Shown here: one piece after another, positions 2,874 to 45,460 of the stretch
How positions within the stretch are numbered: the stretch's first letter is position 1
How the letters are laid out: every line of letters starts with the position of its first letter
Assembly: GCA_000934665.2 (NCBI GenBank)
Contig: KZ538437.1
Location: 1-64,000 of the forward strand
DNA length: 64,000 nt
Origin: Catajapyx aquilonaris
Taxonomy: Eukaryota
Direction: 5' to 3'
Notes under the pieces: generated by a model
What the model was told of the DNA's origin: nothing
The model's database searches: none
Seen by the model: the letters and a program-made list of their open reading frames with translations, nothing else
Made by a program: the position numbers and the translations under genes

Positions 2874-2953
2874 CCGTCTTGAAGCCCGTTATACCCCGGC
2901 CTGAGTTTGGAGTGTGAAGGTCCATTGAGGGCCCCAGACATGTACCGGTGAAC

Positions 2954-18800: not shown

Positions 18801-21072
18801 GTTGCATGAAATCATGGTTTATAAATATGCGACTAAGGGTACTGGCCTCTTGGGGAAAAACATACTTCAAAAAAATTCAAATGTGTTAAAGTAATTTTGA
18901 ACAACTTTGGACTAATTGTGTCAATGCTGTAAAATGTTTGATTAAAAGCAATTTGATGAATATTTCTGTAACTCATTAGCAGGATTTTTTTAATATAAAA
19001 AGGGAGAGCATGATTTTTATTCAGCATTTTATTATGTGCCTGACGTGACTTAATATTGCACATATTGAATTAAATTTCATTTTTTGACAATTATACGATT
19101 TACCAATTCAGTGTGCTACACAAGGATTTCATAACGTCAGAAAATGGCTGTGGAGCATATGACTTGACAGTTTCATCACACCTTCCTGGCACTCTCAAGT
19201 GTAGTCGTCTGATTAAATAACTTTATTAAACCTGGCGGCCCTAACTAAATGTTTTAACGCAAACATGGGCTGTGTGTGCCGCACACCGCCTGAGTCCATT
19301 ACCAGGCTGAAAAATGGAGGCGCTTTTATAGCGCAATATATTTTTTACGAGAAAATGAAACGCGCTTCTGGTACGTGGCTTAGTACCAACTTCTATAAAA
19401 CCGGTTCCTGGCTTCATGTGCAATTTTTTTGCGCCTTTTTCTTCTTCCGGATCGGTTCTGGAAGAACAAAAAAAGAGAGAGAGTCTCTGTCGCTGGGCTT
19501 GTTCCGGGACCGTAATAAAGGCCAATCTTTATAATCCAGTGCTGCCCTCGAGTCCATTGAAGGCGATGGTCCAGGAGGAAGGAATCCTTGGATTTTTTCA
19601 ATAAAGGGAGACGGGGTGGAAGACAATTCGTTTTAATGGGTTAGAAAGGGAGTCGAAACTAGGCCTGACCTTTTGGTACAAACGAAATTTCAAGAAGAAT
19701 TTGCCCAAAGCCATACTTGACAAAATTTAATGTACAATTTACTACATTTTAACACCCTTTTTTTACACAGCTTTGCTATACACTTTCAAAATATATTATT
19801 TCACAAGACACTGATATGTGGGACAAGCGATGTGTGTACACTTTTCTTGTGAATATCTAAGAAAGTGATTATCTCATTTGCAAGACACCTTTGTCGAAAA
19901 AGGGTTTTTTAAATGTAGTGTGTGTAGAGACCTTTCGACATAAGGTTTTTTTCAAAAAGCATAGAGCTCTAAACATAGAGGTACTGTATAAATGAGGTCT
20001 GACGAGATTCATTTACTTAATCTAGCACTGCTCCGCTAATGAAAGAAAATACCATTCCACCAGACTTTACGAGTGAAATTAATTAAAACCTCGGGCTTTT
20101 AAAACAAACTACAACTGTACATAGCATACATATTACAGTTTTACGGAAGCAAATAAATTTATACAGATATGTTCCTTCAGACAGTTTTACCCCTTCAAAA
20201 GTCAGTCCCACTTCAAGACTCACGTTTCTGTCTTGAACCGCTTGAATTTTCAAGTGGGACAAAGTTCAGGACACACTGCAAAAGGCTTCTGTAGACGTTC
20301 TCAACCCCACCTGGTATACACAAACAATTATGTGCCACCCAAGTATTATTACACAAATATGCGCCACCTGTTACATACAAATCGTTGCGTTAATATTTTT
20401 CACACACAAAATGGGGTAAATGTCTCAAAAAAAAGGTTCCGGACATTTTTTAAACGTTCCAATAAACTGTTGACTGGAATTTTTAAAATCGAAATGTCCG
20501 AAACATTTTTTTTGCGACTTTTCGCACTTTTACGAACACAACATTTTTACAGCGTGGTTAGCACCGTCTGGCACTCCCCCCAGACACCAACGTTTTCCCT
20601 TCAGGATTTTGCGACCCTTTACCCGCAAACCTTGTGATCGAGCGATTTTGGTGCCCCCCCCCCCCTTCCCCAACTCGTGATGGATTAGAAAATGGCGTGC
20701 TGATAATGCCTGGAGACTCCCCCATTTCGACCCACCCGTGATAAGTAACCTTTAACTAAATTTTCTTCTTGGCACAGCACCACTTTCCACTGCAGCAAGA
20801 GACGTTATTAACCTTCCACGCTAACGAGATTATTCCTGCGCAGTATTCAGAACAGGTGATGTTTTCCCTCCGTTTAAAAATACCGCTCGCGTTCGGTAAA
20901 AGCGACCTGAAGCATACGTAATCACACTTATGTAACCCGATTTTTGTTCCAAATTTTTTTCCATCAAAAAATTGTGCGGTGTTCCGACCACTAATGGCAG
21001 CCACTGAGTGTCTAGTTTCGCCATGTTTTCACTCCTTATTTTTGTGTGTGGGGGTTTTGTCTTTTAAGGAAA

Positions 21073-21261
21073 CTAAACCTCACTGGCTTCTTTGTTGGGG
21101 TTGGTTTTGGCCAGTTGTTTGGCAGGTACCTGTTCCGTGGTACCTTTCTTGACGTCGAAGACTACCACGTGCTTCTTACGTGCGTTTTCTTGCTGGCGGC
21201 GCCGCCGGAAGTTGGTGGTGAGAAGAAGAACTATGATGGCTGCGTAAAACACCACAACAAC
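21073..21261 (-). CDS. Terminal coding exon of a small single-pass membrane protein (KCNE/MinK-like)
   Basis: tattatcggcag|VVVVFYAAIIVLLLTTNFRRRRQQENARKKHVVVFDVKKGTTEQVPAKQLAKTNPNKEASEV*; 189 nt, phase 0. A hydrophobic run is followed by RRRR, and the block is GC-richer than its flanks. Confidence 0.8.
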   Translation of the reverse strand, partial: VVVVFYAAIIVLLLTTNFRRRRQQENARKKHVVVFDVKKGTTEQVPAKQLAKTNPNKEASEV

Positions 21262-21640
21262 CTGCCGATAATACGCTGGGTTTTAGACACTTTAAAAAAA
21301 ATTACAATGCTATTTGTGACATTACATCTCACAGAAAACTACTTCTGAAAGTTGACCATGTTTTTCTGGCTTCCCTCAGATTTTCCACAGACACGTTAAG
21401 CAAACTTGTGGTAAAGTAAACTCAGCCGATCGTTAGTTTATAAACCGTCGGGTGCTATGTTAGGCTAATGGAATTATCGCCTCGAGGATAAAACGAGCAT
21501 GTAACTTTTTGAGTTTGTCACTTAAGATTTATAGCCTCTCTCTGGAGTGGGTTGCTGGGGGGATCGAAGAAAGACTTCCATTTTACACCGTTGTAGGTCG
21601 AAGCACACAATGGAAGGGTTTTGATGCGGTTAGTACTTAC

Positions 21641-21776
21641 AGTCACATAGATGATGGCGTCGGTAGAGTGATCCGGAGGTTCCTTCCTGCGATGGTGACC
21701 CAATGACCCCGCGTGGGTCAAGGCTGCCCTGTACACTGCCGGTAGAAGAGAACCATGGCAAGCTGGACCCAAGCCT
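21641..21776 (-). CDS. Penultimate coding exon of the KCNE-like membrane protein
   Basis: tttgccatttctatttccag|xGLGPACHGSLLPAVYRAALTHAGSLGHHRRKEPPDHSTDAIIYVT|GTAAGT. It has a strong acceptor and a consensus donor. The phase-0 splice to 21261 creates the continuous TM segment AIIYVTVVVVFYAAIIVLLL. The start exon is unresolved. Confidence 0.78.
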
Positions 21777-24700
21777 CTGGAAATAGAAATGGCAAATTAA
21801 ATTGAAATTGAAATTGAAATTCTTTAGGCTGTTTGTACAGTGAAACCGGTGAAGTTGGACACCCTCATAAGTTGGATCCTTATGCTGGTCATTGTTCCCG
21901 GTCCAACATAGAAAAGTTTCACTATGTATGGAGTCTTGGAGCCCTGATACGCAATGGAAAATTAATATTTTCCTTTCCTATATGCGCACATCTTCATCCC
22001 CTTTGGCAGAAAAGTTGTTTTTGAATCTTTAAAATGTCTCCAGGATATGCACGCATTCCAATTAGGAAGGCATTACGAGAAAGGAGGCGAGAAGGGGACT
22101 AGGATCCTCAGGAATCAATCCCATTTCACGTTTCATGCCCCTGGAATCGGAGCTCTCCCTGACAAAAGGCGCCCACTTTAAAGGAGCTTGGCAATTCCAG
22201 AAGTGCAGAATTCCAAGTCATTCGTTAGCGTTGGTATAGCTCCCAAGTCCCTTCTTTTCCGGGGCCTGTTAGAAAGGAGCGCTTTGAGCGATATCAAGTA
22301 CTAACTTAAACTCATAGGAAAGTAACATTCCTTGTATGCTTCCTGCTCGAGAGATACGGGGAATTGCCGGAATGTGCGTGGTTCCGGAAAGTGGAAGATG
22401 GGAGCATGTCTTGTCGTGAAAATAAGGAACGGAAACTCGATTAACCGTTAAGTAGTCCTTCACTGGCCATCATTATTATTCTGTTTGAAATATTGTTGCC
22501 TAGAATCATTAGACCCAGTGTAATTTGACACCACTTAAGCACCGCCGCTTTTCCAACCGACCAATCAGCAACAACGTAATGGCTAGAAAACCCGCCATTT
22601 TCCAGCCTCCGTCAAGAAAACCGGTAAACGAAACGGACTCCTCTTGTAGTCCATCACCTCATTTGACTCCTTTTCCTCCACCAAGCCAGGCCCAGCGAAA
22701 CAAAAGGGATTCATTAGGCGAAGGGGAAGCGTCTCATCCGTCGCTGTCACCGACAAGCCCGAGTCTCAGTTAGGCCCGGAAGTCAATTAAACCCGCCCGT
22801 CGGGGCTCCCAAGTCGTGTGGCGGTTATATGCTCGGCTCCTACCTTTTTGTCCCATGCCAGGGGGACCCTAAAGAGTGGGGACACGGGTGCCCAACCGAT
22901 TGGAAATAATTGGACTCGACGCAATTTTCTCCGTCCGCTGACTGTCAAGTGCAGGGCAAGCACGGGTGACGCTTTTGTTTGCATCGTTTTATCCGGTAGA
23001 TGTCAGGGAGGTCGGGGGACGCCAGAGGGCGCTGAACGAGATGGATTCCGTTTGGTTTTGTGGATCATGTGGATAAGAAGGCGTTTAAATAATTTCTTAA
23101 CAAAATAGATGGTAACTTGAATACACACTTATTCATATATAGAACAACCTGTAGATTCCTGTACTCTGTACAGGCTCTGTTAGATGTCATGGGTCTGTCT
23201 AGTTCTAGACAGCCTATATAGAGAGAGTGACTGAAAGGGCTCGAGGATGCGTGTAAGTGAAGGAGATGGATGTGGTTTTGCTTTTGTGGACAAGAAATAG
23301 GATTTTGTAGAGTAGGCGGAGTAGCAGTGTGAGATTTAACCCGATGTACTTTGCTGGAGCTTGTCTTTCAGGAGGTCTTGAAGCTCTGCGGTTTGCAGGC
23401 TCTGTGATTCTGAGCTTCTGAGAGATGAGAGAGACAGAGACTGAGAATATTGTATGTGATGTAGACTTAAGCCGGCTTCTACTGAGAGATATTTGACAAT
23501 TAATCCGTGCAGTTAGGTCATGTAAACATATGTTACGTACAGTGCGAAATAGCAGAATTCAGCCACTTGCTATTCCGAAATTAGTATCATATTTTGTGTT
23601 CCAAAAGAAATGTCTAGGTCGTGGAGGTCAAATGGGGGTTAAAAAGCCTATACTTTTGAGCTATAGATGCTTGAGTGCTATGCGACTTGTTCAAGCAGAT
23701 GAAACTGTAGGGCCAACCCCAAGCTTTCTCATCAAGTCTTATTATTTTATGCTCACAAAGAGCGGACGAGGGTTAAGTGCGGGCGAGGGGTTGGCAAGGG
23801 AGTGAGGGTTCTTAACTTGCCAACTTGGGGGCCTTTCAAGTTGCTACCTGCCTGAATAGTTTGTGGGTGTTGCCTGCAGGAAAATTTGCCAGTGGAGACG
23901 GAGCATACCCAAAATTAAACTGATTAATATATGTGCGGCCCACTCAAGATATGCGTAAAGTCACCTTCAAGGCGCAATATTTATCTTCAAGTTTAAAGAG
24001 GAAGCAAACAATTCAAGAGGAAATCTTTCTTGTACTTATATCATCAAGGCTTATATTTTTGATCGCATTACCAAATTGTGCACCTTTTCATTCTGTGCTT
24101 GCATGCATGTTGACTGTACATTGTTGGTCACTAACCGCATACTCGTGTATACTGTGTGCAGCAGAGATATACCATTACTGCACCTACACAGTGTAAGACT
24201 GCATGCGATTATGCATGATATGTCACATGTACAGCTCCAACTCCGTAAATAATGGGGGCTTGTGAAATGTCAACGAGGGCTTGTTTATCCTGAGAAGCGC
24301 TCTTTTTTTAATGTCTGTATAGTACTATAGTTGAATCTATATTCAACCCGGTTTTGTATTATTTTGCCCGGATAATCGGAACTGGGAATTATACATACAA
24401 TGCACCGCATTGTTGAGTCCCGGATCTGGCGTTGCTCACTGCCGGACTAAATATTAAGGGTAATAGTGTATTATCCTGGAAGCTTGGCCAGATACTGCTT
24501 CCGACAGAGAGGGCGGAAAAAGTTGTTTGCAACTATTGTTTTATATGCAGAATAATTATGGTAATAATTAAATTGAAGCATTAAAATGCTAAACCTGACC
24601 AGAAACAAAAGTTGGAAATGTTATGAAAATGAAGGACTGTGTCGTTCTAATCTACAAACAAACAAAATGACAAATAAATGAATAAGTAAGTAGCCTAAAT

Positions 24701-26459
24701 AAACAGGTAATTTTCTGGACTTTGAAAGGAGGTGATAAATAATTGATTGTATATCTAAAATTTCCTTCCAGTTTGAACATGGAATATGTCCAGTATCGGA
24801 GTATTATTTGCAGTACATTTCGAAACATCATCTAAAAAGAATTTGGTGGTACGTATAGTAAAATCGACTTTTGAATGCGATTTCACATTGCTGAGCGATA
24901 TTTGCAGTTGCGGAAACGACAAAAAAGAGCATGGAAAATCCATTACTGGGAAGTCACACGTTTTTTTTTTAGCAAACTCGTTTTTCCTTGATTCACATTG
25001 TTTGCCAGTTTTTTCAACCGATCCTGGGTGATTATTGCTGTTTGCCACCGATTTTTTTTCCATTCCCCCCCTCTAGCGCTGTATGTGCCGAACTTTGAAG
25101 AGTAAACAATCGCAAAGTTACTGGTCGTCGATAATGTGCAATACGCCAACCTCCCCTGTAAACAAATCGAGTAAAAAAAAAACGTTTGGGGCGTTGTCGG
25201 ATTTTCAGATACTCTCTCATAAAACACACCCTGCGAGCACCAATAATGTTTGTTTCGCCGAGTAAAAACGAGAGCGAAAAAACCCCGATTTTTGCAGAGC
25301 AAGTGCGGGTAACAGCATTTTTTTTTTTGTGAACAACCCGCAGTGGTTTTGTACTTTTGTCTTCACTGGTGCGGCCAATTTAAATCCGGATTACTCTGGG
25401 AACATACACTATATTGCGTTTTGACTCTACAGCAGTATTATAATCAGTAGCCAAATTTTAATTTTTTTTGTTCGCGATTCACAGATGACCGCTTTGGTGA
25501 CCTACAGTTTTTCCATTGAAGTTGAAAGAGTGCTTAGAACCGGGTTTGTTAATAACTTTGAAATGAATGGCGGACTTTGGGTAAGCTGGATTACTATTCT
25601 GCAGTGTGCAACAAAGTGTGTAAGTATAACGACCTTATGTTACAAACAATTCGGTGTTTGCGCCAGTGAGTTTCTGATGTTATTCAGAGTTATTCAGAGA
25701 GAAATCTGCAAATTGAAATTGTTGCAGCTGTTCAAATAATTGATTTTGTCAAAATAAATCATTTAAGAGTGCTTTTTCGTGAAATCTTTGCATATTTTTC
25801 GCAACAATTTTGCAATCCTGAGTCACTCACCTACGATTGACAATAGGTATGCGTACCTTTCAGGTGCTGAAAAAAAGCTCGATCGATCCACATACCTGCT
25901 GCGATTACATGCATTAGTCTATTCGTACAGTACCTGCCTCCTACACTACTTTCTTCAGAGGGGAAAAAGGACAGCCTAAAACTGGGCTTTAACTCGAACG
26001 AGACTTGTCCCCCCCTCCTGGCAGGTCTCATGAATATTCCGATGATGACCGACCGTCATGCCAAAATCCCCCTGGCTTCTGAGCCTGGTCATTACGGGAC
26101 CTGAAGAGGGAATTTGGTGGGGCTCGCGGACAATGTGAACAGGCTTAGTGTTGGATAGATGGAACTCGGTTACCACCACCAGTGTGTAAGGTCGGACCAC
26201 ACCCCGGGACTGGATTTAGGTAGGGCCTCCAAATGAATATCCGGGGGGGTTAATCAAGTTGTAGGATAATAGATTTTTGTTGGTACACATATGTTTCATT
26301 CAGAAAGGTCAGCCCTGTGTTGAGCTGTAATCAGGTTCGGTGTATACGCAGTGTAGATAATATAAAGTTTACATGATGTTCACACCGTTGCCTTTGGGTC
26401 GTTGTCGTTGAAACCCACCATTCATCCTATTTAAACAAAAATTACAAAATGTTGCAATG

Positions 26460-26605
26460 TACTATGGGGCTCAAATTATTTTGGCCGCTTTATCCTGGTC
26501 TTGAAGCAACCCGTCGCACAGGCCCCACGGTGAGCAGGTTTGTGTGTGTGAGGGGTTGCTTCAAGACCAGGATAAAGTGACCAAAAGAATTTGAGCCCCA
26601 TAGTA
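26460..26605. mobile_element. Palindromic MITE with ~53-bp arms and TA flanks
   Basis: TACTATGGGGCTCAAATTATTTTGGCCGCTTTATCCTGGTCTTGAAGCAACCC ... GGGTTGCTTCAAGACCAGGATAAAGTGACCAAAAGAATTTGAGCCCCATAGTA. Confidence 0.8.
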
Positions 26606-26634
26606 TACGTCGTAGAATTACGAAAAGTTTCAAA

Positions 26635-26990
26635 TTTATTTACTGTGCTGTATTTATAGTTATTTATTTTCGAATTTATTTATATTTCCTGCATTAGTTA
26701 TGAATTAATTAATTAATCGCGAATTTACTTATTTATGAAGTTATTTATTTGTGAATTTATTTATGAATTATTTTCCTCCTTATTAGTTATGTATGTAATA
26801 ATTATTTATTTGTTTGTTTTCGAATTTATTTATTTGTTAATTTATTTGTTTGTAAAGTTATTTATTTATATCTTTTCTGATTATTTTATTTGTTTATTTT
26901 CTATTTATTATTCATTTTCTATTTTACTTATTTTCCACTTTTGTATTTACAGTAGACTAATTATACCATTTATTATTTATTTATTTGTGC
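26635..26990. repeat. (TATT)n low-complexity tract
   Basis: Degenerate TTTA/TATT repeats; they explain the spurious F/I/Y/L-rich ORF at 26735-27061. Confidence 0.85.
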
Positions 26991-27746
26991 CAAGTCCAAC
27001 ATTTTCGCTCACGGCTTTTGTGCAGCCATGTTTAGTCCAAACGGTGTTTCTCGGAAATTAAAACTACTTCATATTTCTCACACACCACGATATAATATGT
27101 GATTGTCTCGAAGGGTCAGCCAGCAATTACGTGTCCCATTTTCGCCAAAGTGACGTCACAGATCCGTAATTTGACACCTCCGTGGCGTCCAATCACATCA
27201 GAAAGCAATGGCTCTCTCCAGAAAAAGTCGCGGCAAAACGTCAGTAAGAGGAATAGAAAACGCAATTTTACGGGGGCAGGCAAGCAGCTTCTCATCGAGA
27301 CTCCTCCACCAAAGAGGCTGGTGGAAAAAAAAGAGGGCAGCAGCACCGCTTTTTGAGATCAAAACCCGCTTCAAAAAGCCTCGCAGAACAAAGTGATCGA
27401 ATCTTGTTCGTCGGGCAGGCAACAGCGCACAGGGCGAATTGCTTCTTTTGTACCCTCAAAAACCCCGAGCGACCTTTAGTACCACCGACGCAACCCATTT
27501 TCTGCAATACCCTGTATACGCTCCGATGCCAAACGGCATGAATGTCAATGCACTTTTGTATTGAAATGTATGGGATCAAGTGGCGGGGAAGAAAGCGCCA
27601 TTTTTACTTATGGAGTAGGCCATGCGGCAAAATGAGGCCGCCATGTTTGGTCCATATCAGCCTGGATTATTTATGCAGCTACTTTTAGCTGTCATCGAAA
27701 GTAGTTGCAATTCGCAACTTTGATAAATTTTCAATTCCATCTAGTG

Positions 27747-27970
27747 TACAGGGTGTTACAAATTCCTGGGTCTTTTTTATAACTGATATCGCCCGATAGT
27801 AGTTTTTTTGGAGCTTGTTGTGCCTCATTCTATAGCAACTGATATATTCGACACCCTGGGAGTAATGGTGAACCTGGATCGGGGCACAACAAGCTACCCA
27901 AAAATAACTACAATACTATCGGGCAATATCAGCTATAAAAAAACGATCCACGAATTTGGAACACCCTGTA
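27747..27970. mobile_element. Tc1/mariner-type palindromic MITE with ~80-bp imperfect arms
   Basis: TACAGGGTGTTACAAATTC...CTGATATCGCCCGATAGTA...AGCTTGTTGTGCC pairs with GGCACAACAAGCT...TACTATCGGGCAATATCAG...GAATTTGGAACACCCTGTA. Confidence 0.8.
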
Positions 27971-30900
27971 TTTTTGATAACCACTAAAATCAATTGCTTC
28001 AAAGCTGAGGGCCAAAAATCGCTAAGCGCCCATTTTAATTGGAACAGCATGTTATTTATTTATTTAAATTTCACCTATATACTGCCATTGGAGTTCACCA
28101 CTTCCAGAAATTATTTTTCGGCTGGAAATGAGCCAGAAATGTTTGCTACTATCAATGGTTTAAACTATTGATAACTTTCCAGGCTATTTTTCAGCCGAAA
28201 AATATTTCCTGAAGATGGTGCAACTGGATAAAAAATGTGATATTTCCCTTGATGTATTGGTTCGGTTTGGAAACATATATACTTCGACCTTTTACAGCCT
28301 TCTGTGGGTAAAACGCTCTGAGATCGACCTATAGCCTTGCAAAAAAACTGCTCTATTTTTTGTGCAGGCATATATATTTCTGCGGAACTCTTGGTGTACC
28401 GCTGAGTGACATGGGGCCAGCTGTTTGTGAAGGATGGTGGAGCCATTTGGGAATGAAAAGACGAAAGAGAAATAGAGATGGCCACAAAAAAAATAGTAGA
28501 GCCAAAAGCGAAGGCGGTAAGAAATTTTCCTGCCCGCCTTTAGTGCACTTTTGGAGATGAATATACGCTTGGTAGATGTGTACTTTGTCTTAAGTGCGCG
28601 GCAAAGGGGCCTGACACTGCAGATGTTTCAAACGCAGGCACCCCGGTTGTATAGGTCGCAGATAATGTCTTGAAATACCCCTAAAAACTGCGACTGTTTT
28701 CTGGCCGGGTGTCGTAAATCGTATGTTATCTAAAAACCTGGCTCGTTACTGCATCCAGGGTGTGAATATCGGCGCAAAAATTCGCCATCGTATATTACAC
28801 TGATAAGAAAATATTGGAATTGGGGGGGGGGGGTGCCATAAGGTCAAAATATTATTTTAAATATATACGAACGTATTGAAACATTAATGGTCTAAATTAC
28901 GTCCGGAAATAAGTGTAATTTTTTTAAAAGACTTTTTGCCTGTTTGCCTTTGGCGTCTTGGAAGGTCCCAGTTTCAATTTGGGGAGGGTCTCTCGTTGGG
29001 ATGGGGTCTAAGGAGGCGTGATGAGAAGGGCCTGCTAGCTGCAGGAATTAGCGCGGAAGCTGTGCCAGATGCAGTGACTTTGATGCCCAGGTAGTAGCCC
29101 GAGGGGGGAACTTGAAAGGTTGGAAAAGGGGGGGGGGATCCTCCTCCAGGGAAATTTTGCGGTTGGTGAGACAGGATATTGGGTTGGACACTAAGGAATT
29201 CAGTATCTTATTGGGACATACAATATTTAAGTTTCCTTTGAAATCACGAATGAAATTAAAGATGGGACGTTAAATTAATTACATTAAGAAAGTTGGGTAG
29301 GAGCTCAAGGTTGTAAAAGCCATCAATATTGCTGTAACAAATGCGTTGTTTTGCCTTGCTTCTGAGCACAAGACAGGTCGATGTTATGTTTGGGGTATAA
29401 TAAATAGCCCCCGTTTACTAGGTTCAACCTTGTAGGTTGGTTCATTTTGTAACGCCTCTCTCAGCACATCTGTGGCCCATCAATACTCAGGGCCTAAGAT
29501 ATCCTCCATATAGACTTACTGACACCAGGTACGTTTTCACTTCCGGTTAGAATGTGTCGATAAAACTTCCTCGGACGTGAAAAACACATCAATATCAATT
29601 TGGACACCACTATACGATACAGGGTGGTGCAAGGCTCCAGATATTGTTCGAAAACAGTAGTTTCTCCCATAAAGAACTACAAACCACTGTAAATATAGCC
29701 TAAATAATAATTTGCAAAATTTAGGTACCCATACAGAAAAATTTAAAATCTTTGAGCAAATTTGTTTGGAACGGAAGTTAGATACAGAAAAATATTAAAA
29801 TTTTCAGTACTTGCTCTTTGTATTCGGTGTCTGCTTTCTACATAAGGTTTTCACACTTCCTGCTTACTGAATTTTCTCAGCCCTTGTGTTTTCTTTGCCA
29901 AGGTAACGGAACGTTGTATCTGAAATCAATTTTACCCCCAGCCCTTTTGCTTGCTTCCACACTACACAGCATTATAATGAACGTTACTTGGCAATCACAG
30001 TTCTTGTTTGCTTCACTCAGCAAGTCTGTTTCGTTCCACCTTACTCTGTATAACTTTGCTACACTTTGATCTATTCCTTTATACCATTTTTTTATTCACT
30101 TTATTCAGTCTGGGAAATTGCTTCATATTTTCATATGTTCGAAGCTGGGATCGATCTGAATTCAGCGTGATTAAAAAGCGTAATTGATTCAATTAGAGCG
30201 AAGCTTTTTGCGAGGGGTATCCAGCACTTGTATGCCCCGGTGAACTTTCATATTCCAAAAATTTTTGTCAACCATTTTTTTCCCGGCCATATACGTGCAA
30301 AAGAGCTGAGACCAACAGGAAATTTACGACCTGCGAGATGAGAATTGAAACGGTTTTTACAGCTGTGCAAATCTGGGTAATTTCTCAAGGGTTTTTGGGA
30401 CCCTATAAAACCCGGTTGTATAACGTGATTGCGAAAAAATGGGTTTTAGATTTCATATATTTAGCAATGTTTGCAAAAAAAATGGCTGCAAATTTTTTTT
30501 GCACGGAAAGCTATTTTAGTATGAATCATATCCCTCGAGAGTGTCATACTCATAAGGTTTCAAAGCTAGAGTTGAAAACTCTTTCACTATACATGCGTTA
30601 TCCGATGTATCTCATTACGTCAACGAGCACCAGGCTTTTTGCTGGAGCGAACAAAAAAAAAAGCTCGGTAGTTGAAGTATGGTGAGGAAAGGACATGTTT
30701 TATTTATTTCATACATTATTACTCAGGTTGCTTCGAACTCATGCATGGTTTTTGCATCTGAATTTCCGCTCAGTGCATTTAATCCGCGTGATGTTGTGGA
30801 AATGTGTGCAAAATTTTCTTTCCCAAAAATTTCACTTAAAAACTAATATGCTATAGGAAATTTGAAAATGTCCGAAAAATTTATTATGCCCGTATGTGTC

Positions 30901-33900
30901 ACATGTTCACTGTACATCGACTGAGCATTGCATATAGGCAATTCTTTTGGTCCCGGAGGTACCTAAAATAATGGCTCAACAATCACGAAATTGTGTGTCT
31001 CGCTGATTAAAAGTTTGGCTCGGCGTGAAAATATTAATACTTCATAAGCGGCGCCAATCCAAGGTGACCCTGTCCTTTACCAGCCATGCATTATAATCCC
31101 GGGTAAATCGATGGACGTGTAGAGCCAGAGCACACGTGTGTATGGGTCAATATTTGCTAAAGGATCAAATTAAATATGGTGACAAAATTTTGTTATTTTT
31201 CCAACCCATAATTTATTTTTGGAAAATATTTTACGGAAAATACATCCAGACTTAATTTGATATTTTAGCAAAAATGTTAGCTAATGGTTGTGCTAAATTG
31301 ACTCATCTTATGCCATATTCATTAGTGTAATACTGTACCTGACACATAATTACTATTTAATGCACTGGAACATATTTTGCCTTTACCAAAAATTGACCCG
31401 TACACAAATAGACTGGACAATGTGGAGGAATATTAAACACATTTATCAAGCAGTTATAACGTATTCATTTACTCCCAGTCGATAATATAACAACAGTTCT
31501 GGTTGCATAAATAGATCTCGTGTGCCATATTGCCCGTTTTGTACATGAGAAGAGGGAAAGTATTTAATATGCATGACAGTTTGAACGAGCCGATTTTTTT
31601 TTGCTCCAAACAGGTGGTGTTAATTAATCTGTGTATGTGTTGAATTAGCATTTTGATGGCGTAATTAAAATTTGGTGTTGAAAGTTGGTGGCAGTGATAA
31701 CGCTGCAATTAATAATTACTGGCATTTGAACTGCTCGTTACTAACTTTAGTGTAGTAAGCTTAACACGCGTATGCTGGGAAGGCTCGCTTTTTCTTTAAC
31801 GTAATACATGCACTTAGTATACCGGTACCGTATTAAATGACGATTTTATTGAGGCTTGAAACAAGCGCCGAATATTAAGCTGTACATTCTGCATTTAACG
31901 GGGTTGAATAATTAAATAAATGCATAAGTGCACAATTAAATACATGCATGCATGAATTAATTAATAAATATGTATACATTGAAATGATGATGCTCAAATG
32001 ATTTTTTAAACGCCAGATTTATTGAAAAATCAGCAATAAAGCCAGCCTTTGATGGCCAGTTAACACCAAATCAATAGTCTAATAGTATCTTAATTTTAAT
32101 CCCTAATTAAGGTAGGACTGGAGGGCCAGACCGGTTATTCCCAGCAATAAAAATTATTGCTCTCATTTTTAGCAATCGCGTGCTTCCCATAGGATACACC
32201 TTTGGGAGAGAATATTCTCGCTATAAATTTCTCCCCGAGATTCATTAATTTCGTGCCCGAAGTAGAGCAGATTACGAAGCTATTTTATCTAGCTACCGTT
32301 CTGGACACCCCACTCCCTGCATTGGAATTTGGCGAATGAAAAACGAGTAACTGTTGCATGCTGCCAGGAACGAAACCAATCAAGGGCCCCACGGTTCCAA
32401 CAGAAATCAATGTCGCGATCATCCTCAACAATCTCATGGGTGTTGGAAGCAAAAAAAAAATTAGCATGAAACATGTTAAATGTGTGTTTCAGTTTTTTTT
32501 TTCTAGGTGCAACAATCACCCAAGAGGATACTTTTGTACTCTTTGGGAGAAATTAATTTTGGCGCGAATTGTGTTTCATAATTTCCCTTGAGATAAGGTG
32601 GGAAATATTAGTTGGCCCACCCTCCACAGTCTACAACATGGGTATAGCTAGATTTGCACGTTATTTTGACAAAAGGTGGCTGGGAAATTAAGGGGGGAGG
32701 GGGCGATGAGTGCGTCTTGGGGTTTGCCAAAATCTCATCAGGCGGTCCGAGCCCTTGGTAAAATTTTGCAGACTCGTTACGACCGGTGGCAACGACCGTG
32801 TTACCCAGGCTGTACCGGCATGAAATTGCGCATAACTTGGGCCTGGGGAAAGCCCGGAGTTTGGAATTGCGGAGGACGCATTGGGTGTATCAAATACCAC
32901 CGGATATATCGGGCTACCCTTTTTTGGGCGGGGAGTTGTGCTGGAACGATGGAGTTTTCTCAAACTTTTGTGACCTCGACACTCTTGTTCCGTGAACCCT
33001 TTCAACAAGGATTGGGTTCGTACAAAATTGTTTATTGGAGATTGTTTCCAACAATAGAATGTGCAAAACTGAAGCTGATAAAGCTGGAATAATCCAGGTC
33101 AAAAAGTTATGATGTGGAATTATTTTATTTATTTTATTAATTCGGTGTATTATTATTTTCAATAATTTACTTATTTGTATGATCCATCATACGGCTGAAT
33201 GTGCGCAGCAAATTTTTGCTTGCATGTAATACACTAAGAGCATGATATAGGTAGTGCTTTAATTGTTAATAAAATAATCATGGTCGCATGCACTAAAGTC
33301 ATGAGAATTTCATAATATTTTCGCATCCAGTCCTAGGCCTGTACAGTATAACAGTAGCCTACTGTGACAGTGTGCAAAAATATTATGACAAGTGATGAAT
33401 GTGTAGACTTTGCGCTAAATTGTTGTAACACCCGAACGACATTATTAACTTGCACACGTGGCAATGTCAAGTGGGAATTGACTTCCCCCTTTAAAACACT
33501 AATTTTTTTTACAATTATTTAAAAACACAGTAATTAACTAGCTAACAATGAACGAATAAATAACAAATAAATGATTATATGAACGTCCTGGATAATATTG
33601 AACAGCTATTTTATGCCGTTCTTTTAATTGTGTAATTAGTATAAAATTAGTGATTTTGCAATAACAGTAGGGCCTACATTGAAAATAATTATGGTAAGTT
33701 ATATTATGTTAAAAACGTACGGATTATATCCCGAGTCCCATAATCCTTTAACCTTTCAGAGCACTAAACTGGAATCATTAATGAACATAAATACATTTTG
33801 TTGCACTTAGCTGCTCAAATGTTGATGCCCCCGAACCGAGTCAATATTTGAGGTTTTCACTATAATTTTAACACCCCCATCGCTATTGCCCATATCGACC

Positions 33901-36109
33901 TCCCCAAAAATGGGTAAAACACTATAAAATGGACGCCCATAAATGCACCCCAAACTGTAGGATCCCCCTAACAATGGATATCTTCAGAACGTCCTCAAAT
34001 TTGGGGGCCCTGGTTATGGGCCTTTCAATACCCAAACCCCGCATCGCCGAAAAGCGTCTCTCCGTGTCTCTCCATCCCTTGGGAAGCCCCCTAATTAAAC
34101 CATTAGCATTTAGGTTGTCCAGGGCATTTGGGTCACCTGCTGTTAGAGACCCGGTGCATGGCTTTGCTCTCTGAAACCTCTTCGCCTGATTGTCCTACAG
34201 ATAAACTACGGCCGAATTCGGCGGAATGTAACAATTTGGTGCATACCAAGTTTTTTTTTTGCAAATTTCGCCGAATTTAGTTTCGCCGAATCCTTCCACT
34301 CTGGATCCAATTAGCGTTGTCATGATGCCTGTGCGGCTACCAAGGAGTCATACCGACTAGGGACACACTTGTGCATGTCCTCTGTTACTATACAGGATTA
34401 GTCGTGTAGCGTGCGAATTTTTTTTAGCGACGACTATAACGGCGTGCTAAAACAATTGCCTTGGGAGAGAAGAGAGTGGAGCTTATCCAGGCCTGATGCT
34501 TCTGGCAAATTTTATTGTAGTGTCGCTTCAGGTGCTTTCCTTTACGGATTATTCCTGTGGATGTTATGCAACTTGTTGCGTAATTAGTGAGATGGGCGAT
34601 GCCAAGTGTTGGACACAAAAATGTGATTATAGGGTGGGGCTGTGTCAATATTTGCACGTTTAATTTGTGCAGGTTCTGGTTACGAAACTCTAAAACCATT
34701 AGAATTAAATTGCAATTAAAGTAACTGAAAGTATTTCGTCATGTCGTGCCGCGAATTTCGGAAAGAATCAGCCTGCGCAATCTACAGATTTTCTTCCAAC
34801 TTAGCTATGTTGCAATGGACTAGTTAAAAATTGGGGCCACATTTATGTGTGGACTAATGTTTCTTAACACATCTGCCCATTATTGGCCAGTCCAATTAAG
34901 GACATATTTTCGAAGGTGTTGAAAATTTAAACATGTTTACCCCCAAGCCTCAAGCCGGGCTGCTCTCATTATTAAGTCAACAATTACTGTCCCCCGCACC
35001 AGTAGGTTACAGGGTGCAGTTTACCAACCTTTCCAAACCATCTTGCTCAGTAACGAACTACGTCATGAATATAGACAAGGAAATTTGCAGCCCAGATGAA
35101 AACATCAGCCCACATTACTCCGTTTTTTTAGGTCTGTAAAATTCCGGACTTTATTTTCCAAATATGTCCGGGCCTTGACTTTGCAACCGGAAAGCCACTT
35201 CATTAGCGAAGAGAATTATTATTTTCCATCCCTCCGGAGTTCGGTTTGTTTATCTTTCCAACTTTGCAAACGATTACTAGACTCCACGCGAAATCGATGA
35301 GGAATCGTGTGGGCTTTTGTTGCAACCTGGAAAACTTCAGGTTTTAAGTAGGAAAAGGTTTGGATATAGGAAAAAGCTAGACTTAGAAGAACAGCCAAAG
35401 GATGTTTTCTCTGGCCAAATTGGGAGAGAGAGAGAGGGGGGGGGGGGGTTAAGTTTGAAGAAAAAAGTGTGGAAAAAAAATTATCCTCACTTTGCCTGAG
35501 CGCAAAGTCTCTCCCGAGCTGCTTCCAGTGTCAGCTTATCTTGAAGGGTTCCTATTATCATGGTGGCTGGCTTCTTCGGATGTTCCTGATCTGAAAATAG
35601 AAAATAGGCTTGTTATATATATATTTTAAAGAAAATAGACGGCAGTAAAAATCTGTGCAGGTTTTTAATTTTTTTTCTCTCTCTATGAAATAAAACCAGG
35701 CTTCAAGATCACTCTTCTCCCTGCCACAGTCAGGATCTGTTATTTGGCCTGGTTCAATTTGATTGTTGCCACTTTCAGAGCTCAATTTTCTTCCATTGAG
35801 AGCAAAGTGCCTATAGAGTCGCGTGAAAGCCGAAGGAAAAAAGAAAGTTTTTTTTATTGGCCAAGTATCTGAGGGGAGCTGCTGCGAGAAGCTATATACC
35901 GATGTGTGTGCTCGACTTCTAAACTTTTCTTCAGAAGAAGCTTCACCCAATCATTATTGCAGGAAGGAGATATATTTCGCCAAGTTGGTAAGACATAGAT
36001 AGGGCCTATATACACTCAAATTCATGTCTAAGTTCAACAAGAGTTTGTCAGTTCACTAATTGTGCAAATTTTGCGCCAATAATATCTTTACTTTTATTGA
36101 AATATACAT

Positions 36110-36197
36110 CTGTAGTTGCTCTTCCTATCCACCAGAGGCGCTGCCTCCCCATTGCGCAGGCGCAGCATTCGGAAGCGATATATGGTCCAATCAGAAG
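36110..36197 (+). repeat. Dispersed ~80-90 bp repeat, copy A
   Basis: CTGTAGTT..CCACCAGAGGCGCTGCCTCC..ATTGCGCAGGCGCA..CCAATCAGAAG; homologous to 37385-37459 and 63143-63232 in reverse orientation. Confidence 0.75.
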
Positions 36198-37384
36198 CCT
36201 CGGTCATACAACGAAGGATTTTAATACTGTATAGATTATATGTGCATGCAACAATGTCGACATTTAATATTCGCCATTTTGTCCACACAGTGCGTAGGGT
36301 GCCTAATTACTCATACATGAAGCACGTTTTAAAACTTTAATCACATGCCAGCATGTCTTGTAAAGTGTAATCCCGCACATTCGGCACGTCATTAAACTCG
36401 ATCCCCAAAAACCGCAAAAACGCAACCCACGACTATATCCAAAAAGAAACGACGTCATATACACGAAAATGTGAAAACCCACACAAAGTCAACAAAAATA
36501 TTTCAGTGAGACGAACGAAAATTAGCGAGTGACGTCATTACTTTAAATATCGGATTTGAAGTCATAACCTTTCTGGTAATACATTGTTTACGGATGGCTC
36601 TGATGTGATGTTCCTTCCCCATATTTTGGTCGTCGAATCGGACGTACACACAGACAGACCTTGAAACAAGTTTACTTTTCGATCTAATGACACTGGCAGA
36701 ACAGAAAACGTGGCTTACGAGACCTGAATCCCAAATTTTCCAACCCGGATTTTCAGGGTCTCTGTGTAATCCTGTGCCCTGTTTTAAGTCTAAGAAAACT
36801 TCCTCTCTTTATATATTTTTTTGCGACGCACGCGATATCGATTCATATGAGCTTCCCAGTGTTTAAGGTGTTGCCTTAGGGCACCCCGTTTGTATCCCCC
36901 TTTTTTATATACAGTTTAAGCCAGGATGCTTCTAACCCACGTCATTTCCGCCGGAAATCTCGTGTGATGCCCTAGAGACTGGCGAAAAAAGCAGCTCTTT
37001 TTCCATCCAGTTCTTTGAAGTTTGAAGCTATCTACTATAAAAGCGGCTCTGTTACTGTTTGCCTAATTGTTGGCGTTTGATATGATAAATGACGCCTCTC
37101 GACAGGGCCATTGTGTCCATACAAAGAGTGATGAGGGATATCGCAGCTGGAATTAATGCGGTTATGCAATTGCAACCTGTTTTAGGCCCATTGCACAAGG
37201 TCCATTCATGTGGGGTTGAAATGCGATGCAAATTAGTGTCCAACGGGACCAAATGACACCTGTGACGTGAGAACATGGCCTTTAATGTGACGTAATAATA
37301 ATAATATAATATAAAATGAAAAGTTTGTCTGTATGCCCTTCTGGCGCCCCCGCTTTCAAGGCTTTCTAGTAGTTTGAGCGACGT

Positions 37385-37459
37385 TTCCGATTGGCCCGCG
37401 TTTTGCGCCTGCGCAATGGTGGAGGCAGCACCTCTGGTGGGTGACAGGAGGAACTACAG
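37385..37459 (-). repeat. Dispersed ~80-90 bp repeat, copy B
   Basis: Reverse complement reads CTGTAGTTCCTCCTGTCACCCACCAGAGGTGCTGCCTCCACCATTGCGCAGGCGCA..GCCAATCGGAA. Confidence 0.75.
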
Positions 37460-38738
37460 TAGTCTTATACTGCATATAAAAGGAAAGGTTTGTCGGTAAG
37501 TCCCCATAGCAACGGGTTAGCCTACCCATGACCATTTCTACCATTCAATGCCTCAATTCCCGTGCGAAGAACTGCGGTGCGAAGCTACAAGTAGCTGTTG
37601 ATGATGATACAATTATTGATGATTTCCTACTTAATTTAAGGTGACAACAGGCCAACATTGTCATTAATATTGTGATAACCAACCCTGATCAACCAATATT
37701 CAATTTGTCACCTGAGAACTGACCAGCTTCCTTCCTTCCCCCCAAAAAACTGTTGTTAGTCGCTGACAAGCACTTCATCACACACGCTCATTAATTATTG
37801 GCCGGCGCATAATGAGTGTGTTCTCTTTTTGGTCACGGGTGTCGAAAGAGCCTCGAAAAAAACCAGTTGTATGGCCGAAACCCTACAACAACACCATGCT
37901 GTCCTGTCCTGCTGCGTTTTTGACCATGGGTATGGTTGATGGCTCGTTTAATGTTCGACCGTTGAAGATTTAATTGCGCCCGTGGCCTGACACGTACCAT
38001 TGTGCAGCTTATTCATGTTGATTGCGATGGTTTGCCGTCAACTGCATCCGAGTCTCGTGTTGCTGCAACCCGGGGAATAAACGTGTTGTGCCCGTCCCCC
38101 TTCATGTCTGTCGGATGGGGAGCTGTATTGCGGGGGTATAAATTCAAAGGCGCTTGTTGGGGATACGTGGGGAAATTAGATGCTGGAATGAGCATTCAAG
38201 GCGAGTCGCTGGAGTTGGGGGATTAAAGTCGTAAGGTTTGGACCCATGTCAATGCTTAGTTAGAGCAAAATGGTAATAGGCACTGAGATATTCATAATTA
38301 ATTGAAGATGGAATAGGAAAACTGGCTAAGTCCACAGGGGTGGGGGGTCAAAATCACGACTCCTGTTCATTTCTTGTAATTGATATTGGCATCATGACAC
38401 CCTGTGTCGTCTTGTGTTCGCCAAGTGCATCTACCACTCGAGTTTGGTGATCTTACGATGCACCGTGTGGCGTATAGCTCGTTTTCTGTTTCCATAGGTC
38501 AATTTCAGATGCATATTTCCGCCTAAAAAGACACAGGTGAATCACGCAAAAGTGAAGTTTGAAATTTTTGACTCGATGAATCTCCAACCTCGAACAGTGT
38601 AATCCACGAAAACTGACAATGACTAGTGGCAGTTTTATTCAATTACTGAGCCCGTCCCTAGCAGCATTACTCAGCCTGTCAACGCACCTAAATCGCATAA
38701 GTGCTGCATAATGCTTCTCTCTCAGCTAGTAACGTGGT

Positions 38739-38800
38739 TGGGTTCACACGGTTATTTTGATGGTCGTTTCTGTCTTTGGGTTGCCACCTGTGTGAACCCA
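38739..38800. mobile_element. Minimal (62-bp) member of the GGGTTCACAC MITE family
   Basis: TGGGTTCACAC ... GTGTGAACCCA is a perfect 11-bp inverted repeat; the internal GTCGTTTCTGTCTTTG resembles the family subterminal motif. Confidence 0.55.
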
Positions 38801-39512
38801 GCTTTTTATATAATAATTCCTGAGATCTGTTTTCTCTCCACATTCAAGAAACTTGTCTGAAACAGCCGCCTGAATTATTTACGCCTCCTTCATAATTCAA
38901 GACAACAAGTTTCTTGGTTTACATGAACCCTCCGATTCCTCCAAAACAAGAAGAGATGGTGCAGCTGTATACGGAGGTGGTGTTTCCGCCAGAAACTCTC
39001 TTCAAAGTTGGGCCAGTAATTAGCTGGAGGGAAAGTTTCAATCCTGGACTCCGCAAGGAATTTTAATCCCAGACTGAGGGGAGATTGTATATCCATCGAG
39101 ACTGAATTTTGGATTCAATTTTGCGCCACTGCTATGCGCAGATTGAGCTCAAAATTAGTGGAAGGGCCGCGCAGATAACTCACTCTATAGGCAAGGGGCT
39201 TTACTGCATATTTGCTTTTCTATAATGTCGCACTTAGTTCGGCATACGCTGGATGTGGGCGATGTGGTGAAATGCGACGTTTAAAACATGTACGAGCACT
39301 AATTGATGCATTTTCGAGCGATCTGCCATGTAGGCTACTAACAGTAAGTGCCACGAAAAAAATTTTGTTTGAAATTTATAATCTTTCCCTCTGAAAATAA
39401 ATTTTTCTGTCATTTTTACCCAATCCTGTTGATATGAATGACCATTTTGTTTACTATAAATATTTGTGCGCACCACATTTCGTCCAGGTTGTACAGTTGG
39501 AATTATCAGTGA

Positions 39513-39819
39513 CTAGCAGGATACCCGGCGTTGCTCGGGTTATGAAATATTTTTCCATAGGAGTAACTCATTGATGTAACAGCGTCAAAAATGACTCCAT
39601 TTACATGGAGTAACAATAAAGGGTAGCTATAGGCCTGGTTTTCTACCTTATCGCCTCCTGCGGCCAAGGATGACCTCGGAGGTCAAGTACAATGTGCTAA
39701 AAACCTTCCCCGTTAAAAACTACCCCTAATGATCACCCTGGGGCATATGTCGAGACTTCCGTATGGATTTGCATCGGGAACGTACAGACATTACGTCTTG
39801 AAATATACACATAATTTGA
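39513..39819 (-). mobile_element. Non-autonomous Helitron-like element
   Basis: Plus-strand A|CTAG-CAGGATA-CCCGGCGTTGCTCGGG corresponds to a - strand 3' hairpin followed by CTAG|T. The other end is approximate (ACAGACA...ATATAC...GAT). Confidence 0.6.
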
Positions 39820-42800
39820 TTGGCAAAAACTGTTGAAACTACATATTTTTCTTAGAAATGTTTTTTTTCTAGTCCTGTGTGAATTATTATGACTGTTTTG
39901 TTTAGCAAAAAATTGTGACTAGGATTGGACCTAAAGGTTCAAGTCGCAATGCAGTTTCATCCGTTTATAACACTTGTAAAAACATGCGCCAGGCAAATTA
40001 AATATCTAGCACTTGCCCTCCGGAACTGGTATGACGAGGGGTGTTTAAAGCAGAGTTGCATTTTTCATTTGTAGTTCGGACTTCTAATTACCATCGCTAA
40101 GTGGCGTACCGGTGTGGGCCAAAATCTGGCCAAAAGGGGGCGCAGGGCCATGAAAAGTACTGCAGCAAAACGCTGATTAGCAAAAAAAGAGAAAAAAAAG
40201 CTCGGAGATTTTCATTGGTGTGTTGCATTAGATTACGGTTTGGTTACTATTCACATACTTTTTTGCAGTAAAAATGCGAAAAATTAACTTGAGCTCAAAT
40301 TAAGCTTGAAGCTGCATGGAAGCTAAATTGCCCAGACGAGGGGTGAGAACTACAAGGTTGTAACTACTGTACATATGATTTTCATTGCAGTTACACGCTT
40401 GTAATTTATTATTCTCATCCATCGCAGAGTAATTTACAGTATATTAATTTAAAGAGTATTTACTACAACTTACACACAACTTTAACTAATGCGTTACAAA
40501 TTTGAGTCGACAGGTGGTTTTACCCTGGTAAAGCCATGGACTTTGGGACTAGCCTTGTGGGTATGCAAAGCAGCAAGTGAGTTTACGCTATTCCCCCAGG
40601 AGATATTAAAGGTTTACGACGGATGCGTGTGAGGTACACACGTACATGACTCATGCATGCGTATATTCTAATGAGAGACGCTCAGGACTATGCATACTGC
40701 GTAACACACAGTAAGTACAGGCCGGTACAGGCTGTAATGTCATCATAGTGTGGTGCTTTCAATGCAAAGCATTTCAGGGAATACGATATTGCAATAGTTC
40801 CAACTATTATTCACATGCATTTGCAGTGTTGCCGCATTGTGCAACCAGCATTATTTTTGTAATATTCCATAACATTTTTCCGACAGTTTTTACATTATTC
40901 CCGACATCTAGCTGTACATTTTCTGACTATAAATTGACGCCCTTTGTCAGGCCATAGTTTGGGACCAGCTTAATCCGCCCTGTTTCTGAATACGACCCGC
41001 CATTTGTGTAGAAACCGAGCGCTTCTAACTGCGGTGCAGTTTTGTAAAGGTCCTCTTGTTTACAGTAAACCTTCCACCAAAGTTGGGAACAAACCAAAAG
41101 AATCCGAGGGTCCTCTTTTTTTTGAAACTCTTTTTGTGTTCCTTTCTGCTGGTGCTTCATGCCCCTCATTTGGTCCCTTTCCCTGAACATCCGGGTTGCA
41201 CACCAACCCCCGCCTGTTCCATTAGCTGTTATTACCCCTCACAAACTCACGAATCTCGTCAGTTTGAGGTAAACGGTCCGAGGATCAGGTCTACCGCTGG
41301 GGGCTCTGGCTATCATTCCATGGGACCCCAGCACATCCTATAGAGAGCACAGGAGGAAATTGGAGTGGGCCAAATTTCTGCCAAATCGCCATACTTTTTG
41401 GTATAGCCTCCAGCACTACAAAACCTTGTATCGCAAACAGGGTGAGCCAGAAATGAGGTCGCCTTGGCCTCAAATAAGTCTGAATATTTCTGGAAAATAC
41501 TAGTGAACAAGTTGGCAAAATTGGTGAATGTGAGATGGCCCTCCAATTTACCATCTAGTAGTTTTCTTCAGGCGTAGATGGCGCACCCTACCTAAGCAGA
41601 CCCCCGCCATCCACAGGTCGTGCGAGAGATATCGCCATATCGGTACTATCAGCACAAACATACGACAGAGAAAATAAGCCTATTAAGAATAAGATATTAA
41701 AACTGCGTCTCTTCCAATGGGCAAATTGTCTCTGGGGCAATGTCAAATACGTATTTAGAATTGTTTTTGGCCATCATGAATAAAGTGCAGTTTAGACTCA
41801 CCCTGTACATGAGCTAGGGCAAAAAGACGCCGAGTGACGATTTTAGCCTGGAAGGTGTCATTTTTCTCGCGGCGACTTTTTACGAGCGAAAATTTCAACG
41901 CTTTACGACATTCCAAAGTTGTTTCGAACTTTTTTTTTCTGAGTAAAAAAAACGGGAGTTACACCAGGACGCAAATCAGTCGTATTTTCCACGCCACTTT
42001 TGAAATGAGAGGCTATTTTTAAAAAAACTTTGTAAAAAATGTTAGGGCGTGTAATTGGAACTGTGGGACGTGTAAGCTGCGGCGGTGAAAAATTGCCCTG
42101 ACGGGGGGGAAACCCCGCGAGTAAACAATGAAACAGTACCGCGGGTGGTATGAATAACGCACCTTTTTTTGCAATTGTTTGGTTGTTTGCGTGGCGGACG
42201 ACATGTAGGGTAGTTTTCAGGAGCAGGTGCCGCTTTACAGAGGTGGGCTTTTTTTCCCAGCAAATTTATGCTTACAAAAGTGGAGGCTAATTAAAGTACT
42301 GATGGCCAGTTTTTTGCCATAGGTGCTGTGATGTAAGTCAACATTTTAACTGCTATAGCTCAGATGAAGAAGTATTACAGCGTAGCAGAAGTCAACAATT
42401 TTGATCTGATTAGAAATATAAACTGTGAAGAAATTTATCAAGGAATTGGAATTGACCATTTTATGATTAAATGAAAGACTATGTGTGGAATTTTCGTCCC
42501 ACTGCTAGTTGTTGCTTAGTTAGTAGCGGTTAGCAGTAACTAGCAGTGGTACAAAAATTCCACCATAATTATATTGTGTGCGTTACAGGCCCAATAGGCT
42601 ACAGCAGAAAATAATACTGATGATGTACAGTAAAATGAAATATTAATTTCTTTTTTATATGTGGTTATTCTAAATTTTAAAAGCTTTTTCTTAGGTCTAC
42701 TACATTTCATTTTTATTGAGTATGTCGCTCTTCATCATTCGTCACTGACTTATAGGCTTAGAGGTAAATGGGATGTATGTGCCATCGGATAAGTAGGTCT

Positions 42801-45387: not shown

Positions 45388-45460
45388 CAGTAAAATCTCG
45401 ATATAACGCTCTTCAAGGGACCGACCAAAAGTAGCGTTATAAGCGGGATTGGTTTTACTG
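45388..45460. mobile_element. pogo/Tigger-like mini-MITE relic
   Basis: CAGTAAAATCTCGATATAACGCT ... AGCGTTATAAGCGGGATTGGTTTTACTG form an imperfect inverted repeat with CAGT termini. Confidence 0.55.

Follow-up and report, generated by a model that had tools for sequence, protein, structure and literature searches.

A four-exon gene of Catajapyx aquilonaris encodes a predicted single-pass membrane microprotein of an uncharacterised arthropod family

In this study, a 64,000-nucleotide (nt) stretch of the genome of Catajapyx aquilonaris (assembly GCA_000934665.2, contig KZ538437.1, positions 1 to 64,000; hereafter, the window) was analysed with respect to a small gene located on its minus strand. 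With high confidence, this is a spliced gene of four exons, which encodes a 131-amino-acid (aa) membrane microprotein predicted to span the membrane once and belonging to a family of related proteins. It is a new member of an existing, although unnamed and uncharacterised, family, in which every named member is of arthropod origin. The gene had been brought to attention by an initial annotation of the window, in which two exons joined by an intron were proposed to encode a microprotein resembling the KCNE (MinK-type) subunits of potassium channels. The gene itself was confirmed, while its length, its C-terminal signal and, above all, its relationship to KCNE required revision. The protein is considered here as a putative accessory subunit of a larger membrane protein.

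Gene structure and splicing

Evidence for splicing was provided by a run designated X1, i.e. 31.8 million letters of contigs (their kind is not on record), which were compared with positions 17500-37400 of the window. The gene spans at least 26.5 kb, from 46325 or further upstream to at least 19818, and consists of the following features:

46293..46325, minus strand: 5' exon, non-coding, 3' end only (the first 30 letters of the loose end of an X1 contig match 46296-46325 exactly)
35591..46292, minus strand: intron 0, 10,702 nt, GC-AG (X1 contig and reading of the splice sites)
35491..35590, minus strand: exon 1, residues 1-23 and two bases of codon 24 (sequence, tblastn and X1 contig)
21777..35490, minus strand: intron 1, 13,714 nt, GT-AG, phase 2 (X1 contig joint 21776 to 35491)
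21641..21776, minus strand: exon 2, 136 nt, third base of codon 24 and residues 25-69 (X1 joints on both sides)
21262..21640, minus strand: intron 2, 379 nt, GT-AG, phase 0, within the helix-coding region (X1 joint)
21073..21261, minus strand: exon 3, coding part, residues 70-131 and the stop codon TAG (21075-21073)
19818..21072, minus strand: 3' untranslated region (UTR), at least 1,255 nt (X1 cover at 19818-20622, 20709-20959 and 20960-21259, with one break at 20623-20708)

Both coding junctions found in X1 are exactly the predicted minus-strand GT-AG junctions. A 257-nt contig joins 21776 to 35491 and leaves out 13,714 nt, the ends of which read CT..AC on the plus strand. Another contig, of 396 nt, joins 21261 to 21641 and leaves out 379 nt, which also read CT..AC on the plus strand and thus GT..AG on the minus strand (the joint was reported as 21259 to 21639, with the cut shifted by +2). 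The latter is the junction proposed in the initial annotation; its splice sites are present in the sequence, and the translations of both exons agree with those given there. Moreover, homologous proteins are colinear with the spliced product across both coding junctions in blastp alignments, including the protein P0026 of Anabrus simplex (58.6% identity), so the claim of a genuine spliced microprotein gene was upheld.

The 5' exon was located through the 257-nt contig, which covers 35491-35593 and continues with 92 more letters, the first 30 of which are identical to 46296-46325 (0 of 100 shuffled sequences matched). Provided that this contig stays colinear with the genome, the 5' exon extends at least about 62 further bases upstream. 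At the boundary of intron 0 three bases (CAG) fit either side of the joint, which was placed by means of the AG acceptor and the GC donor. This donor of the first intron reads CAG/GCAAGT (46291-46295, minus strand).

Exon 1 carries the ATG codon (35561-35559, in the context GCCACCATGA) and is bounded by an acceptor, TTTTCAG, before 35590 and by a phase-2 donor, AA/GTGAGG, which matches the phase-2 acceptor at 21776. A tblastn search of the window with the N-terminus of an Allacma protein produced a match at 35561-35490 on the minus strand, and the exon is 65% identical to the N-terminus of the Neocloeon protein. Exon 2 (64% identity to Neocloeon) is flanked by TTTCCAG before 21776 and GTAAGT after 21641, as read from the sequence. 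Its frame is open upstream to a stop at 21799-21797 and contains no in-frame ATG, and it is therefore an internal exon. It codes for (i) the second conserved cysteine, (ii) the LLPAVYRAAL motif, (iii) the S-T-D-A motif preceding the helix and (iv) the first six or so residues of the helix itself (21658-21641). A short repeated stretch of the CAATTT type lies at 21788-21827 (minus strand), just upstream of the exon 2 acceptor.

Exon 3, the acceptor of which reads ...CGGCAG before 21261, carries the core of the helix (21261-21211), an RRRR cluster, the motif of a predicted beta-hairpin (at about 21177-21127) and the C-terminal E-A-S-E-V (21090-21076). When joined, the coding pieces of 71, 136 and 189 nt form a coding sequence (CDS) of 396 nt, with 131 codons and one terminal stop. 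The product is thus longer than the approximately 110 aa originally estimated, since its start lies in the exon at 35590..35491. The statement that the helix appears only after splicing was an exaggeration: about 6 of its roughly 23 residues do come from the upstream exon, but the stop-to-stop open reading frame 21073..21282 already holds most of it.

No AATAAA signal was found near 19818 when the sequence around the mapped edge of the 3' UTR was read. Contigs of X1 at 20656, 17640 and 26530 agree with the window at one end only, beyond which 255 letters differ from it. That at 20656 falls within the 3' UTR and could represent an alternative 3' structure, an allele or a repeat. Short pieces of 40 bases at 26469-26585 resemble a repeat.

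Membership in an arthropod protein family

A search with the exon 3 peptide identified two proteins of Collembola, one of which is colinear with the product across the exon 2/3 junction. The phmmer search of 1.84 billion representative sequences with the Orchesella protein P0006 returned 16 matches at E ≤ 0.001, and profile searches extended this number to 51 at E ≤ 0.01 (58 at E ≤ 10, the range from 1.4e-2 to 10 being empty). All species-named matches are arthropod proteins of 110-296 aa, annotated as "uncharacterized" or "hypothetical" and carrying no Pfam domain. They originate from mayflies, Orthoptera, Collembola, decapods, an amphipod, a mantis shrimp, horseshoe crabs, spiders, scorpions and mites. 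No protein of a holometabolous or hemipteran insect, of a nematode or of any other non-arthropod was present among the matches, which is weak evidence of absence, as the searches covered predicted proteins only and used a word index. In the literature, no paper was found for six LOC identifiers of the family or for three of its helix motifs.

Against the profile of 41 family members, the spliced product reaches 122.6 bits (E 7e-40, Z=1), matching profile positions 6-124. In blastp comparisons its residues 1-113 align with Anabrus P0026 at E 3e-45, and the whole is 51.5% identical (E 5e-42) to the Neocloeon protein, which also has 131 aa. Orthologues of 110-182 aa have the same N-terminus as the window's protein. 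With members of the family (e.g. Neocloeon triangulifer XP_059469825.1, Anabrus simplex P0026, Centruroides XP_023219904.1 and Tachypleus XP_076308793.1) it is colinear over all three coding exons and shares (i) the N-terminal L-C...C pair, (ii) the S/T-D-A motif before the helix, (iii) the basic cluster, (iv) the tail motif, (v) the terminal valine and (vi) the position of the intron in the helix. The helix signature common to the window's protein and the family is V-x-V-x-x-V-F-Y-A-A-I-I-x-x-L-x-G/T-T-N. In the family alignment the columns A, F, Y and I are invariant, and V, V, A, A, I, L, G, T and N are conserved in at least 90% of the members. The window's protein possesses all of these residues except for the glycine at position 81, which is replaced by threonine as in the Collembola members. 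The helix accordingly ends with L-L-L-T-T-N-F here and in Collembola, in contrast to L-L-V-G-T-N-L in winged insects.

The intron inside the helix-coding region, pointed out in the initial annotation, seems to be a property of the family. Homology begins right after Q in P0052, P0055, P0056, P0060 and P0062, and ends right after Y-V-T in P0009 and P0016, so that these fragments of gene models from other arthropods break at the same place. This is what reading through a shared phase-0 intron would give in the short gene models of mayfly-like, spider-like, decapod-like and collembolan sequences.

Some diversity within the family was also observed. Spiders and decapods have at least two paralogue groups (P0058 and P0067-P0071 versus P0030-P0036; A5 versus A6), and the second group of spider paralogues is characterized by two N-x-S/T sequons in the N-terminal part and by a different tail motif. 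The protein P0076 of Penaeus monodon (119 aa) comprises the family N-terminus and tail without the helix core and is either an exon-skipped isoform or an error of the gene model.

Protein anatomy and predicted topology

The protein contains one hydrophobic segment. Its best 19-residue segment begins at residue 65 and has a mean hydropathy of 3.04, while the next best reaches 0.78; as there is a single such segment, there is no signal peptide. In all 49 members with a full N-terminus the flank following the helix is more positively charged than the flank preceding it (means of +4.51 and -1.33, respectively). The N-terminus is therefore predicted to lie outside and the C-terminus inside, in accordance with the single-pass topology first suggested, and the N-terminal part of about 63 residues would face the outside or the lumen, with a cytoplasmic tail of about 45 residues. 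Exactly two N-terminal cysteines are present in 38 of these 49 members, and the window's protein likewise has two. One or two N-x-S/T sequons occur in 21 of the 49, mostly in chelicerates.

Conservation, expressed as the mean share of the commonest residue, is 0.75 at positions 56-84, 0.30-0.37 in the N-terminal part and the tail, and 0.51 in the last five residues. On a helical wheel, the variable positions of the helix (62, 66, 77, 80 and 84) are confined to the sector of 100-160 degrees, and conservation extends over about 250 degrees of the surface, where it includes a stripe of small residues formed by V67, A74 and G81 (i, i+7 and i+14). In an AlphaFold2 model of an orthologue, built with the family alignment, this helix has a predicted local distance difference test score (pLDDT) of 95, and residues 100-115, where the conserved tail motif lies, form a beta-hairpin.

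A class I PDZ ligand has the form x-S/T-x-hydrophobic at the C-terminus. The window's protein, ending with A-S-E-V, fits this pattern by its sequence, as had been noticed in the initial annotation, but in this respect it departs from the family norm, with S or T at position -2 in only 8 of the 67 members that end with V, L or I. The terminal residue is V in 62 of 70 members and V, L or I in 67 of them. Position -4 is D in 32 of the 67, and position -3 is A or G in 46. Judged by the alignment, the C-terminal feature of the family is D-A/G-x-x-V and not a class I PDZ ligand.

Putative accessory function

Most of the helix surface has been conserved between chelicerates and insects, unlike the soluble parts, which are poorly conserved; this suggests that the helix packs between helices of a larger membrane protein. 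A putative role as a helix-docking accessory subunit is thus the interpretation that we favour, and we regard it as reasonably, though far from securely, probable. The helix would be wedged between helices of the larger protein, as in such small accessory subunits as KCNE and FXYD, and the hairpin motif of the tail together with the D-A/G-x-x-V end would serve either binding to a scaffold (of the PDZ type) or export from the endoplasmic reticulum (ER). A terminal valine plays a role in ER export. A voltage-gated potassium channel is one candidate for the partner.

Several points weigh against this picture or the gene model beneath it. A conserved helix is also compatible with self-association or with a lipid- or trafficking-related role. 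In the AlphaFold2 model the N-terminal part forms two helices of low confidence (pLDDT 51-66), and the overall values are low as well (pLDDT 66, predicted template modelling score (pTM) 0.29). Comparison of the model with the PDB using Foldseek gave 0 matches at E ≤ 0.001, and the best rows, at E of about 1, were unrelated short helical chains, a result that is uninformative at a pTM of 0.29. Position -2 of the members ending with V, L or I varies (A in 29, V in 11, E in 9 and S/T in 8 of 67), which would be unusual for one conserved PDZ partner. Finally, as the kind of the X1 contigs is unrecorded, a processed DNA copy could in principle yield the same joints. X1 covers 7 of the 30 bins of the compared 19.9-kb stretch (19492-22147 and 35428-36091, with traces at 17500-18163 and 26132-26795), and this confinement to the exons and the UTR argues for an RNA origin.

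In another interpretation, which we consider plausible but distinctly less probable, the protein is a stand-alone small membrane adaptor or cargo-like protein. Its helix would self-associate, and its function would reside in the cytoplasmic hairpin motif and the terminal valine (scaffold recruitment, sorting or ER export). This would agree with the retention, in the tail, of both the D-A/G-x-x-V end and a K/R-H-x-V-V...D...G...Q motif, and with the heptad stripe V67/A74/G81, which probably represents the type of face used in helix homodimers. However, beyond these two short motifs the tail shows little conservation (0.30) and differs in length between members. The helix, in contrast, is conserved (0.75) over most of its circumference, and simple anchors or homodimers seldom need such broad conservation of the helix.

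Relationship to KCNE and other small single-pass proteins

The accessory subunit reading has a more specific variant, in which the family is a true, although very divergent, relative of the vertebrate KCNE/SMIM34 group, sitting in the cleft of a voltage-gated potassium channel (KCNQ, Shal or Erg) and tuning its gating or trafficking. We consider this improbable, and homology to KCNE, as suggested in the initial annotation, was not demonstrated; the proteins appear to fall into the same architectural class, and the relationship remains a lead. In KCNE proteins themselves, a cytoplasmic juxtamembrane motif is conserved.

The resemblance concerns, in the first place, architecture. As in KCNE and SMIM34, the proteins are small and single-pass, lack a signal peptide, are predicted to be oriented N-out/C-in, carry N-terminal sequons in a part of the arthropod family, possess a basic stretch after the helix and are expected to function through the helix. 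KCNE/SMIM34 proteins were also the nearest in feature searches of the ESM Atlas. For Anabrus P0026, SMIM34A, an unnamed cluster and KCNE5 were at the top with a score of 0.93 (204-212 of 256 features shared), and for the spider protein P0032 these were SMIM34A/SMIM34 at 0.93-0.94 (203-216 of 256). For each of the two queries, 14 of the 30 Atlas matches belonged to the set carrying PF02060 (ISK_Channel). On the other hand, shuffled proteins reach a feature score of at least 0.9 in 4-10 of 100 cases, as stated by the search tool itself, SRTM1 scored nearly as high (0.92-0.93), and among the members of the top clusters only 13-31% carry PF02060. The feature search may reflect the general architecture of a small single-pass protein. 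A structure search of the Atlas with P0026 returned only TM-scores (template modelling scores) below 0.5, to unrelated bacterial proteins.

In searches of PDB sequences, KCNE2 (2m0q_A) was the only sequence reached by the profile of the whole family (E 0.54), and the hexapod profile reached it at E 0.33. These matches are not significant, and the two alignments differ in where their gaps fall. In the hexapod search KCNE2 ranks below MscL (E 0.13-0.27); it was not retrieved with the chelicerate profile, with either crustacean profile or with the single sequence, and the KCNE1 and KCNE3 chains never appear. Taken together, no significant match in the PDB resulted from the four sub-family profiles or from the single sequence; MscL, NHE1, C11orf98, designed repeats and DKC1 were returned at E 0.13-8.5. 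KCNE thus scored no better than unrelated transmembrane helices in the profile searches.

The same conclusion follows from Pfam. Per-protein tables were available for 35 of the 41 members and the other 6 were covered by a summary of families matched by at least 2 members (HMMER filters discard most matches above about 0.1). PF02060 gave no row at E ≤ 10 for the exon peptides of the window or for any of the 35 members, nor was it among the families matched by at least 2 of the 41. Scattered families of helices appeared at E ≤ 10 (YxzE in 10, HemY_N in 8, DUF1218 in 6, DUF4079 in 5 and PgaD in 5 of 41 members), all below their cut-offs, and were rejected as matches of composition.

The gene and protein also differ from KCNE in their organization. 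The coding regions of KCNE genes are typically single-exon. In contrast, the gene described here has three coding exons, and the arthropod family is distinguished from KCNE/SMIM34 by a conserved intron in the helix-coding region, a conserved terminal valine and the N-terminal pair of cysteines, in addition to the lack of any significant sequence or profile match.

Two other groups of small membrane proteins were considered. The FXYD proteins are small N-outside single-pass regulators, whose conserved helix docks on a multi-pass pump, the Na,K-ATPase, and which have a basic juxtamembrane stretch. The arthropod proteins resemble them in being small and, by prediction, N-outside and single-pass, with a conserved helix and a basic juxtamembrane stretch, but PF02038 was present in none of the 35 per-protein tables (of 41 members) and no F-X-Y-D motif precedes the helix. 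The MPS proteins of C. elegans (PF17523, MPS-4) were touched by one spider member only (P0036, 1 of 35 tables), at E 0.17 and 12.5 bits versus a cut-off of 25, and many unrelated families of helices were matched equally well or better. The MPS proteins are described in a preprint as KCNE-like single-pass proteins of invertebrates (bioRxiv 10.64898/2026.04.28.721385). A search for terms in a review of the KCNE family returned no mention of invertebrates (PMC13054283). SMIM34 occurs, as far as the search listing shows, only in lists of chromosome 21 genes.

That the exons are merely the C-terminal end of a long type I membrane protein, as the acceptor upstream of 21776 and the missing in-frame ATG first hinted by pointing to more upstream coding exons, or else a chance open frame without a gene, is extremely improbable: the former reading is refuted by the ATG exon, the 131-aa CDS and the X1 joints, because the upstream exon adds only 24 codons (Met included) and its junction with non-coding sequence lies just 29 bases before the ATG, and because orthologues of similar length share the N-terminus, while the latter is excluded by the spliced contigs and the blastp match at E 3e-45.

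Other features of the window

Exons of a neighbouring gene of the leprecan/prolyl 3-hydroxylase type were found at the following positions:

2918-3388, plus strand: exon of the leprecan-type gene
14956-15405, plus strand: exon of the leprecan-type gene

This gene has a signal-peptide-like start, a TPR_leprecan match at E 3.4e-18 and a 2OG-FeII_Oxy_3 match (E 6.5e-5, 24.2 bits) just below the cut-off of 27. Undetermined bases (N) at about 4950, 43400-43500 and 58900 produce X inside G-rich runs of the translated frames.

Significance of the family

Small single-pass subunits often set the behaviour of channels, pumps and receptors, and they are easily missed. The family described here has no entry with a name or a Pfam family. 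Between horseshoe crabs, spiders and insects the helix has hardly changed, and such constancy implies a membrane partner that is both conserved and important. It is doubtful that the family constitutes the missing invertebrate counterpart of the KCNE/SMIM34 subunits of potassium channels, ancient in arthropods (from chelicerates to insects). If this were true, it would have been overlooked because of its tininess, its long introns and the fact that it was not found in any holometabolous insect here, including Drosophila, and KCNE-type modulation would predate vertebrates, contrary to current papers. In this sense the arthropod family provides channel research with a concrete candidate for a question that is still open. 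Should a partner be found, even one that is not a channel, the family would represent a new accessory subunit in arthropods, including pest mites, aquaculture crustaceans, and model spiders and crickets.

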